Shown piece by piece: positions 33,650-51,865 of a DNA stretch of 64,000 nucleotides (positions within the stretch are counted from its first letter, which is position 1; every line of letters starts with the position of its first letter). The position numbers and the translations under genes are program-made. The DNA lies in NCBI GenBank assembly GCA_023133415.1, contig JAGLWM010000004.1:3574-67573 (forward strand), written 5' to 3'. The notes below the pieces were generated by a model. That model was not told where the DNA came from. It saw nothing but the letters and a program-made list of their open reading frames with translations, and did no database searches. The DNA is from Candidatus Pacearchaeota archaeon (lineage in GTDB: Archaea; Nanobdellota; Nanobdellia; Pacearchaeales; GW2011-AR1).

Positions 33650-33880
33650 TTATTTCTTAGTTTTTTGGTTTTTTAAATGATACGCTCCGGATGCGAATTC
33701 TCTTTTGCATTTTACGCAGTTCCAGATGGATTTGACTTTTCGTTTTACATGACCTTTGCAGAATGGACATTCCTGTTTGACTCGCTGCTTTCTTTCTACG
33801 GCTATGAGTTTTTGCTTTATCTTACCATAACCTGCGCCTAATCTTCCTGCGCTTCCGATTTTTTTTCTTTTTACTGCCAT
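33650..33880 (-). CDS. rpl37ae: 50S ribosomal protein L37Ae (eL43)
   Basis: KKIGSAGRLGAGYG..CPFCKG..WNCVKCKREFASGAY. Confidence 0.85.
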   Translation of the reverse strand: MAVKRKKIGSAGRLGAGYGKIKQKLIAVERKQRVKQECPFCKGHVKRKVKSIWNCVKCKREFASGAYHLKNQKTKK

Positions 33881-33892
33881 TTTATTTTTGTT

Positions 33893-34014
33893 TTTGAATG
33901 GGGCTTATCTCATAATTTGCATCTCGAAACGGTATTTAACCTTTTGTGTTTCTCGAAGCGAATTACTCGCCACAGACTTGAACTCCGTTCAAATCTCCGT
34001 GTCCTTTTGAATTT
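33893..34014 (-). repeat. 110-bp element downstream of tRNA-Pro, bounded by a 12-bp direct repeat of the tRNA 3' end
   Basis: tttgaatggggc at 33893-33904 and 34003-34014. The interior has a tRNA 3'-half-like segment (ACGGAGTTCAAGTCTGTGGCGAGTA) and aattcgcttcgag..gcaaatt motifs shared with the tRNA-Ser elements. Confidence 0.6.
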
Positions 34015-34081
34015 GAATGGGGCCACGCAGATTTGAACTGCGGTCGCGAAGTCCCAAACCTCGAATCATACCAGGCTAGAC
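34009..34081 (-). tRNA. tRNA-Pro (anticodon UGG)
   Basis: GGGGCCA/TGGCCCC acceptor stem, CGAGG-TTTGGGA-CTTCG anticodon arm, CGCAG-TTCAAAT-CTGCG T arm. 73 nt, no encoded CCA. Confidence 0.85.
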
Positions 34082-34122
34082 CATGGCCCCATGAGTTTGA
34101 GGTGATTTGTTGATTAATAAAG

Positions 34123-51299: not shown

Positions 51300-51304
51300 T
51301 ATTA

Positions 51305-51581
51305 CGCTCACACCCTATTCGCACTTTGCATTTCGCAAAAATATTTATCTGAATTTTTATTTTTATTTTACTCAAAGCGAAGATCCTCAGAATCGAATTT
51401 CTGTCCCATTATTGATGAAAAATAAATGGTGTCTATGACACCATGAACGTTCACACCTTGCTCACACTTCACTCTAAAATTTTGTCAATTTTATTTTTTC
51501 TTTAGGCAAAATTCGAGCAAAGATGTTCGGAATCGAATTTCGGTTCTAATAAGAATTTATGGGATTTATAATCCCATTAAA
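51305..51581 (-). repeat. two tandem 134-143 bp elements downstream of tRNA-Ser(UGA), each ending in a copy of the tRNA 3' end
   Basis: cgctcacacc at 51582, cgttcacacc at 51448 and cgctcacacc at 51305. Internal ggaatcgaatttc(g/t)g and ttgcatttcgcaaa motifs. Confidence 0.6.
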
Positions 51582-51662
51582 CGCTCACACCAGGAATCGA
51601 ACCTGGAAGCCCCGAAGGGCCTGGTTTTCAAGACCAGTGCACTACCATTATGCGATGTGAGC
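51582..51662 (-). tRNA. tRNA-Ser (anticodon UGA)
   Basis: GCTCACA/TGTGAGC acceptor, CTGGT-CTTGAAA-ACCAG anticodon arm, long variable arm GCCCTTCGGGGCTT, CCAGG-TTCGATT-CCTGG T arm. Confidence 0.9.
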
Positions 51663-51784
51663 ATATCCTAATAATAGGACGCCCATACCCTAGCTCGCAA
51701 TTTGCATTTCGCAAACTATTTTTAATTTTCGTTTGCTCGAAGCGAATTGTTCGGAATCGAAACTTCGATTAGTGGTCTAGGCTA
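51663..51784 (-). repeat. 105-bp element downstream of tRNA-Ser(CGA), ending in an 11-bp copy of that tRNA's 3' end
   Basis: cgcccataccc at 51785-51795 and 51680-51690. The interior aligns with the tRNA-Pro element (aattcgcttcgag..aaa..gtttgcgaaatgcaaattgcgag). Confidence 0.6.
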
Positions 51785-51865
51785 CGCCCATACCCCGAAT
51801 CGAACGGGGATGCCCCGGGGGGCCGCGGGTTCGAGCCGCGTGCAATACCATTATGCGATATGGGC
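51785..51865 (-). tRNA. tRNA-Ser (anticodon CGA)
   Basis: GCCCATA/TATGGGC acceptor, CGCGG-CTCGAAC-CCGCG anticodon arm, variable arm GCCCCCCGGGGCAT, CCCCG-TTCGATT-CGGGG T arm. Confidence 0.9.

Follow-up and report, generated by a model that had tools for sequence, protein, structure and literature searches.

The window analysed here is a 64,000-nucleotide stretch of contig C16 of a Candidatus Pacearchaeota archaeon, whose genome (G000) is an 836-kb bin of 21 contigs with 37% G+C that is 85.6% complete. Our subject is a short segment between an intact tRNA-Pro(UGG) gene and rpl37ae, and the family of small hairpin elements to which this segment belongs. A preliminary description of the window had noticed that the segment ends in a second copy of the last 6 nt of the tRNA plus 6 nt of its trailer. 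The two 12-nt copies are exact, and they enclose an insert of 107 nt that holds no open reading frame (ORF) and has a hairpin as its core. This 12-nt recurrence was reached in none of 200 shuffles of the 380 nt downstream (shuffle maximum, 10): the tRNA-Pro repeat is real and far beyond chance. The ATG of rpl37ae (33878-33880) lies 12 nt past the right repeat.

Between the tRNA and the hairpin stand an inverted and then a forward copy of the 3' part of the tRNA gene. The inverted stub extends beyond the point at which the hairpin interrupts the forward copy. A tRNA 3'-half-like piece had been reported from this region; this is borne out by the forward copy of positions 53-68, but the adjoining GGCGAGTA is tRNA only in part (TGGC), and the rest of it is the 5' end of the hairpin (CGAGT). 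We call the two main hairpin subfamilies H1 and H2. Their matches were obtained with the models R1 and R2, respectively, of which R2 is a covariance model, and the tRNA-Pro copy is an H2. The stretch of about 65 nt that could be aligned between this locus and the element at tRNA-Ser(CGA) turned out to be the H2 hairpin (79 and 74.6 bits with R2). A search of the whole window with R2 gave no further significant match beyond the Pro copy and two copies in the Ser array. The equivalent layout described for both tRNA-Ser genes was also found, with H2 and H1 copies and orphan 3' ends at these loci (Table 1).

The arrangement is not restricted to the window. At 15 of the 34 testable tRNA genes of the genome, at least 10 nt of the gene's own 3' end recur within 400 nt. 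The gap between gene and repeat holds one of a few conserved sequences, mainly H1 and H2. The inserts are, as first proposed, tiny, non-coding members of one family that are attached to tRNA 3' ends and each end in the cognate tRNA terminus. The H1 sequence is CGAAC-AATTTGCTCGAATTTT...AAAATTTTAGAGTGAATT-GTGAG. The H2 sequence is CGARY-AATTCGCTTCGAG...GCGAAATGCAAATT-RYGAG, and it is found at tRNA-Pro, both tRNA-Ser genes and tRNA-Arg(UCU). With antisense and partial copies included, an H1 or H2 unit is present at no fewer than 20 of the 37 tRNA genes. A third, shorter type, with the core ...TAC..GTATGACTCTA..GTGAGCCTC and the same stub and repeat layout, forms a tandem array after tRNA-Ile(UAU) and a single unit after tRNA-Cys. 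Yet another filler occupies the equivalent site at tRNA-Lys(UUU). The insert of approximately 370 nt behind tRNA-Ile(GAU) was considered as a cargo-bearing element and rejected, as it is a broken H2 unit.

Table 1. Features of the hairpin loci. Plain numbers are positions in the window; C numbers denote contigs of the same genome (G000).
Feature	Location	Strand	Basis or score
tRNA-Pro(UGG), intact, target gene	34018-34090	minus	ARAGORN; Rfam tRNA 53.1 bits
Left direct repeat gccccattcaaa, tRNA positions 68-73 + 6 nt trailer	34012-34023	minus	
Filler ttcaaaa (7 nt) between left repeat and inverted stub	34005-34011	minus	
Inverted copy of tRNA-Pro positions 53-70, ggacacggagatttgaac, 16/18 nt identical	33987-34004	minus	palindrome scan
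Turn gga (3 nt)	33984-33986	minus	
Forward copy of tRNA-Pro positions 53-68, gttcaagtctgtgg	33970-33983	minus	palindrome scan
H2 hairpin, 63 nt, imperfect, 5' CGAGT-AATTCGCTTCGAG ... CGAGATGCAAATT-ATGAG 3'	33907-33969	minus	R2 (match 33907-33970, 79 bits, E 8e-20)
Unassigned 2 nt between hairpin and second repeat	33905-33906	minus	
Right direct repeat gccccattcaaa, orphan tRNA positions 68-73 + 6 nt trailer	33893-33904	minus	
rpl37ae, pushed away from the tRNA by the insert	33650-33880	minus	ORF list; Pfam Ribosomal_L37ae, E 7e-16
tRNA-Ser(CGA)	51785-51865		
Repeats gggtatgggcgt bracketing the H2 copy of tRNA-Ser(CGA)	51784-51795 and 51679-51690	minus	
H2 copy between tRNA-Ser(CGA) and tRNA-Ser(UGA)	51692-51754	minus	R2 74.6 bits
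tRNA-Ser(UGA)	51582-51662		
H1 copy 3' of tRNA-Ser(UGA)	51458-51528	minus	R1 73.7 bits
Distal H2 copy of the tRNA-Ser(UGA) array	51316-51390	minus	R2 63.9 bits
Orphan 3' end ggtgtgagcgt behind the distal H2 copy	51304-51314	minus	
Third type, 77-nt tandem array, 2.5 copies, after tRNA-Ile(UAU)	C1:42246-42440		
Third type, one unit, after tRNA-Cys	C17:2428-2540		
aRF1 gene with H2 unit at its 3' end	C20:39914-41008		
AlaRS gene with H2 unit at its 3' end	C2:5289-7058		
tRNA-Met and promoter, tandem duplication	C4:23209-23476		
tRNA-Glu(UUC)	C1:54121-54195		
Integrase (~400 aa) flanking tRNA-Glu(UUC)	C1:51583-52875		
Topoisomerase-IB-like ORF flanking tRNA-Glu(UUC)	C1:54225-55298		
Integrase paralogue	C17:29493-30683		
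Reverse transcriptase	C12:4916-6031		IGNLTSQ motif
Contig ends inside hairpin units (six)	C3:1-65, C4:1-118, C5:22400-22505, C11:8589-8613, C13:1-23, C17:69915-69985		

Each H1 or H2 element is a single imperfect hairpin of 60-75 nt with the ends 5' YGAR... and 3' ...GAR-YA. H1 has 18 predicted pairs, with conserved U.G and G.U pairs and with exchanges of AU for CG and of UA for GU, and the sense strand outfolds the antisense strand in 14/14 copies. The H1 apex is mostly C-GAA-G and in some copies GCGAAGC, a type of mini-hairpin that is extraordinarily stable in DNA (PMC13037366). The consensus of H2 has 17 pairs, 13 of which are changed on both sides; in the tRNA-Pro copy there are 16-17 bp, and the A/T-rich loop contains a TATA-like TTAAATA. 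The conserved non-Watson-Crick features of H2 are a U.U, a C.A and two tandem G.A/A.G motifs, which stand 12 nt from each other, each in a Y-GA-R context. The G.A motifs were also considered as part of a K-turn, a C/D box or an H/ACA element; these readings were rejected, because inspection by eye showed neither the box sequences nor the 3-nt bulge, and the Rfam search is empty. In Rfam 15 only the tRNAs match, and the best other score is below 20 bits. Compensatory changes preserve the pairing of the hairpin: for the H2 units at the Pro locus of nine genomes, 97.9% of the cells in the alignment pair, and double changes are seen at 6 of the 16 pairs. None of 500 shuffles equals this pairing score, and in slid registers the paired fraction falls to 23-48%. 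An H1 copy usually has its closest neighbour in another genome and at another tRNA (38 of 52 cases).

The architecture of the units was derived from 96 hairpins taken from the source genome and 80 loci of relatives, 51 of which are canonical, with an upstream tRNA on the same strand. The order is fixed: the intact gene is followed by an inverted copy of 8-18 nt of the target, then by a forward copy (typically 8 nt), the hairpin, and a copy of the remainder of the gene with its flank. The canonical units span 22 tRNA species, and the H1/H2 family targets the 3' third of tRNA genes. Position 57, in the T-loop, is where the copy that follows the hairpin starts in most cases (31 units); 12 units have this start at 63-65, and 4 have it at 68-69. 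The unit described above, with its start at 68, belongs to the rarer Pro class (65-69). Repeats measure 9-42 nt (median 19), and in about half of the units they stop 1-2 nt past the discriminator. An independent set of 92 H2 hairpins in 72 loci, collected with an exact H2 pattern from DPANN bins, gave a similar picture: a tRNA lies within 150 nt of 64 hairpins, and the copy starts at position 57 in 22 of 43.

In the position-57 class the forward stub stops at position 53, and positions 54-56 are lost. The inverted stub ahead of it, which usually begins at positions 59-60, includes bases that are absent from the interrupted copy, and it was therefore copied from an uninterrupted target. The palindrome centre lies 8 ± 1 nt ahead of the hairpin in 75 of 124 units. 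The hairpin ends stay constant whatever position has been hit; for example, one H1 subtype is inserted between 53 and 57 in tRNA-Lys(UUU) and between 62 and 64 in tRNA-Ser(UGA). Polarity is strict on either strand, in that the intact target is on the 5' side of the hairpin and the duplicated piece abuts its 3' end. It also holds in 11 mirror-image units, whose hairpin runs antisense to the tRNA and has a copy of the tRNA 5' part against its 3' end; these copies end at about position 12, 24-30, 40, 55 or 63-68 and reach up to 17 nt into the upstream flank. Whole interrupted tRNA copies stand beside intact ones for Arg in G025, Pro in G026 and Met in G000 (G numbers denote the genomes examined, and L numbers below denote loci of relatives). 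In arrays H1 is usually proximal to the tRNA, with H2 distal and more decayed, which fits the addition of new units at the gene. Decayed and truncated copies are common.

The targets are not exclusively tRNA genes. Two H2 units of the source genome are located at the 3' ends of the protein genes for aRF1 and AlaRS; they are built like the units at tRNA genes, and both ORFs are intact. What appear to be the same gene ends carry units in other bins too. The junctions (GAGT/TCG/AAGGATT and GTTGC/AGGATT) resemble the block of T-loop and T-stem. In three loci of other bins (L110, L136 and L152), H2 is surrounded by conserved sequence that is not a tRNA (...ggaagctacct, H2, tacgggaac...ttccgtcgga); the target there may be a further structured RNA gene.

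Evidence for mobility comes from the orthologous tRNA-Pro/rpl37ae spacer, which was retrieved from about 30 genus-mates. In seven of them (G004, G018, G032, G007, G030, G035 and G015) the spacer is empty and consists of 12-37 A-rich nucleotides, whereas nine genomes (G000, G003, G061, G016, G024, G027, G063, G066 and G026) have an H2 unit in it. Filled sites from which the insert and one repeat are subtracted give the empty-site sequence. Because the same site is empty in some genus-mates and filled in others, the H1/H2 elements are mobile. The repeats at this locus comprise 6-12 nt of the tRNA end and 1-12 nt of trailer, depending on the genome. G069 retains both repeats and the final bases of the hairpin (GGCCCCAttcaaattca-gagaaaa-GCCCCAttcac); we take this remnant to be a deletion derivative and not a clean excision.

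Of 36 genomes examined in the genus, 24 contain H1, with 1-9 copies each and the highest number in the source genome, which has 16 H1 matches in addition to its H2 copies. Only one weak match was obtained among 24 genomes of other genera in the order. The first 12 H1 loci from 11 other genomes all adjoin tRNAs, and the tRNA species differ between genomes. Among DPANN bins, 72 stretches match the exact H2 pattern, and at least four were judged to be from genus-mates; one extra match is on a 1.7-kb contig in a Desulfobacterales bin, which is most likely mis-binned. The literature searched contains no account of this tRNA-linked hairpin family, and a census of MITEs (miniature inverted-repeat transposable elements) lists one MITE-rich Woesearchaeal genome with no tRNA connection mentioned. 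This mobile hairpin family of tiny DPANN archaea is apparently undescribed so far.

On balance, and with moderate confidence, we consider the tRNA-Pro segment to be one insertion of a non-autonomous hairpin that is mobile at the DNA level and duplicates its target in such a way that the gene is restored. Integration would be a one-ended DNA event at the palindrome of the T-arm, in which the folded hairpin becomes linked to the target through its 3' end. The interrupted stretch would then be copied anew, by which a complete gene would be rebuilt upstream. The inverted stub would be a by-product of the repair synthesis, formed as synthesis switched to the displaced, uninterrupted strand as its template. 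Since the targets are essential genes present in a single copy, only those outcomes that restore the gene would survive. The enzyme would presumably act in trans, and candidates are the host's Xer-like tyrosine recombinases and an unrecognised Cas1-like or other integrase. More tentatively, the units may represent a new mode of transposition, in which the 3' end of a single folded hairpin becomes attached to a palindromic T-arm, the target is re-copied and the gene that was hit is rebuilt each time, in the manner of Cas1 or a casposase but without a recognisable Cas1.

Several points weigh against a DNA-level mobile hairpin. None of the elements is linked to a gene for a transposase, an integrase or a Cas1-like protein; for Cas1, the six frames of the source genome yielded no such ORF in a motif pre-screen, which is a weak test. 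A free or autonomous form was not found either, as none of the hairpin pairs in the 72 loci has a hairpin-ORF-hairpin arrangement and IMG/VR contains no match. That repair synthesis explains the inverted stub and the 8-nt rule is our own inference. In about half of the canonical units the repeat ends 1-2 nt past the discriminator, and there both borders of the duplicated piece are tRNA landmarks, which may hint at an RNA-mediated step. Finally, the hairpin sequence is conserved across species and loci, which may point to a cellular function rather than to pure selfishness.

Among described systems, the closest geometry appears to be that of casposon integration at tRNA-Pro. The casposase of Aciduliprofundum boonei duplicates a 15-bp segment, 5 bp of which lie in tRNA-Pro, and it requires the adjacent palindrome of the T-psi-C loop in the way that a CRISPR leader is required (PMC5137440). 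Both systems use a tRNA 3' end as the target, with an overlap of 5 nt with the tRNA-Pro end for the casposon and of 6-7 nt at our Pro locus. An adjacent T-psi-C-loop palindrome as recognition or 'leader' sequence, an intact gene and the expectation of tandem insertions beside the tRNA are further likenesses. The hairpins differ in that the pre-screen revealed no Cas1-like gene and that the insert is one hairpin of 60-75 nt, not an element bounded by terminal inverted repeats. In addition, the main class duplicates positions 57-74 within the gene, an inverted stub is present and the repeat length is not fixed.

With MITEs, REP/REPIN, Correia and RPE sequences the family shares a short, non-coding, multi-copy, palindromic, strain-polymorphic and taxon-restricted character. 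It has three of the traits by which a MITE is recognised, namely one long imperfect palindrome (in the role of terminal inverted repeats), multiple copies and insertion polymorphism. The target duplications of these groups are short and of fixed length, or there are none, and a recognisable transposase relative usually exists. Our units depart from this with repeats of 7-44 nt that are not fixed, an inverted stub, a duplication that restores the gene and a specificity for the tRNA T-loop. A link to IS200/IS605, REP/RAYT or TnpB was rejected, since PF01797 and PF07282 have no match in the source genome, which is 85.6% complete.

The preliminary description had regarded the repeats as classical scars of site-specific integration. 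That larger, integrase-bearing elements entered these tRNA genes and were later almost wholly deleted is now close to refuted and very improbable. The idea explains that direct repeats of a tRNA 3' end adjoin an intact tRNA, with an insert that has a repeat on both sides and a partial 3' copy downstream. It also has enzymes to offer: the source genome encodes five tyrosine recombinases, namely three Xer-like proteins (270-300 aa) and two integrases (~400 aa), one of which is 1.2 kb from tRNA-Glu(UUC). However, neither these five nor the topoisomerase-IB-like ORF adjoin a unit, and no distal tRNA-Glu(UUC) repeat is present around the nearby integrase on the contig. The att scars known from archaeal and bacterial tRNA genes (SSV1/pNOB8 type, genomic islands) contain 9-23 kb of foreign DNA with an integrase, and each element uses one tRNA (PMC9897764, PMC3293823); the repeats are ~44 bp long (PMC9897764). 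Our units are approximately 100 nt (90-140 nt) in length, non-coding and with no integrase or other gene between the repeats. A single conserved hairpin family is present at more than 20 (at least 22) tRNA species, and no intermediate sizes were seen. Each unit has an inverted copy of the target, the repeats run from a fixed tRNA position into a variable flank, and arrays, mirror images and protein-gene targets exist.

It is less improbable, though still rather unlikely, that a tyrosine recombinase acts on the folded hairpin. The hairpin would mimic a single-stranded site, and the T-arm, whose 7-nt loop lies between two 5-bp arms, would act as the double-stranded core site; a single strand exchange would be resolved by replication. 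Folded single-strand substrates of this kind are the attC sites of integrons and the attP hairpin of CTX-phi, which is used by XerCD. Like these, H1 and H2 are imperfect hairpins with conserved unpaired or mismatched positions and a strand bias, and they form arrays at one fixed site. The end of the forward stub (53) and the usual start of the inverted stub (59-60) are the T-loop borders, where cuts would be expected, and most genus-mates have one or two Xer-like proteins beside the three of the source genome. What speaks against such a recombinase is that, in 49 genomes, the number of recombinases does not follow the presence of H1: G007 has the hairpin and no detected recombinase, and H1-free genomes have two or three. 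The integron attC core boxes, R''/R' (RYYYAAC / GTTRRRY), function together with the IntI integrase, but the hairpin ends CGAAC and GTGAG pair through tandem G.A, without such boxes, IntI or cassettes; the recombinases are short and Xer-like, and the repeats are derived from the target. The duplication up to the tRNA end is not explained by the model alone, and sites other than the T-loop are used as well (63-69; about 12-40 in mirror units).

Two further explanations are about equally improbable in our judgment. In one, the hairpin would spread through RNA like a short interspersed nuclear element (SINE), being transcribed with the trailer, linked to tRNA fragments or copied along with them, and, after reverse transcription, inserted by target-primed synthesis. 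This would account for the variable repeat length and for a duplicated piece that often extends from T-loop position 57 to the tRNA end, and the G.U pairs of H1 favour the tRNA-sense strand. The genome has a single reverse transcriptase, but it is of the diversity-generating retroelement type; it is not adjacent to any unit and was rejected as the mobiliser, as the hairpin alignments contain no adenine-biased variation. Moreover, the orphan copies carry the genomic trailer and never CCA, mirror units include up to 17 nt from upstream of the tRNA 5' end, and the hairpin can point either way with respect to the tRNA. In the other, the unit would serve the host as a transcription or processing module after tRNA genes, for example as the source of a small RNA from the trailer, as a terminator, as an insulator or as a portable promoter. 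The structure kept in place at the Pro locus and the strong conservation of the sequence across species are consistent with this, as is the TATA-like A/T-rich H2 loop, found by eye about 25-30 nt before the orphan 3' end and ahead of rpl37ae or tRNA-Ser(UGA). A module of this sort is difficult to reconcile with seven close relatives that lack the unit at the Pro locus, with occupied tRNAs that differ by genome and with the frequency of decayed copies; H1 loops have no TATA-like motif, and antisense units exist. Last, archaea are known to have split tRNAs as well as introns in the T-loop (PMC3218864), and pieces of such genes, spliced at a bulge-helix-bulge (BHB), would, as in Thermoproteales, Nanoarchaeum and Caldiarchaeum, also place one short sequence within many tRNA genes, often in the T-loop. 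At some loci (L012 Arg, L028 Pro and the Met copy on C4) a whole tRNA copy is indeed split in the T-loop by the hairpin. This reading was rejected and is extremely unlikely: the fold is a T-stem, a one-sided bulge of 6-7 nt and then a helix, with no BHB motif at the junction. The hairpin occurs in either orientation, an intact gene is always beside the interrupted copy, and the interrupted copy is dead, since no canonical tRNA can be formed without T-loop positions 54-56.

If the units do represent such a new mode of transposition, an unknown integrase or a host route of replication or repair moves an element that lives inside single-copy essential genes of the smallest archaeal genomes. Transfer RNA genes are classical landing sites of mobile DNA, until now for large elements that bring an integrase and a copy of the tRNA end. 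Here a hairpin of 60-75 nt lands likewise in genomes below 1 Mb, at more than half of the tRNA genes and at two essential protein genes, and the gene is always left whole. The family is a natural system for studying the tolerance of essential single-copy genes to insertion, and it offers a testable link between palindromic targets, hairpin DNA and the integration geometry of Cas1-like or Xer-like enzymes. Position 57, the 8-nt stub and the polarity are strong constraints for the enzyme hunt.

The unit also separates tRNA-Pro from the neighbouring gene. Because rpl37ae follows the tRNA so closely at the empty site, the unit in front of it would have to be read through, or else transcription would have to start from the A/T-rich loop. 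In six insert-free loci (L025, L026, L027, L033, L034 and L039) the gap between tRNA-Pro and rpl37ae is 12-31 nt, too short for a promoter. As these genomes leave no room for one, the rpl37ae mRNA is probably co-transcribed with tRNA-Pro and freed by 3' processing.

The units account for many 'partial tRNA' calls and contig breaks in DPANN bins. Six contig ends of the source genome lie inside hairpin units (Table 1). The hairpin repeats thus break the assembly, and the tRNA genes that are absent from it (all Ala; several Gly, Val, Pro, Leu and Arg) probably fell into the resulting gaps. On contig C4, tRNA-Met is tandemly duplicated together with its promoter. The upstream copy is split between positions 65 and 66 by an antisense H1, and in the downstream copy the acceptor 3' strand stands in place of the first ~10 nt of an antisense H1. 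Most tRNA genes of this genome have a T just before position 1 and another just after the discriminator, and because of this flanking T on both sides the acceptor stem predicted by ARAGORN is one pair too long.

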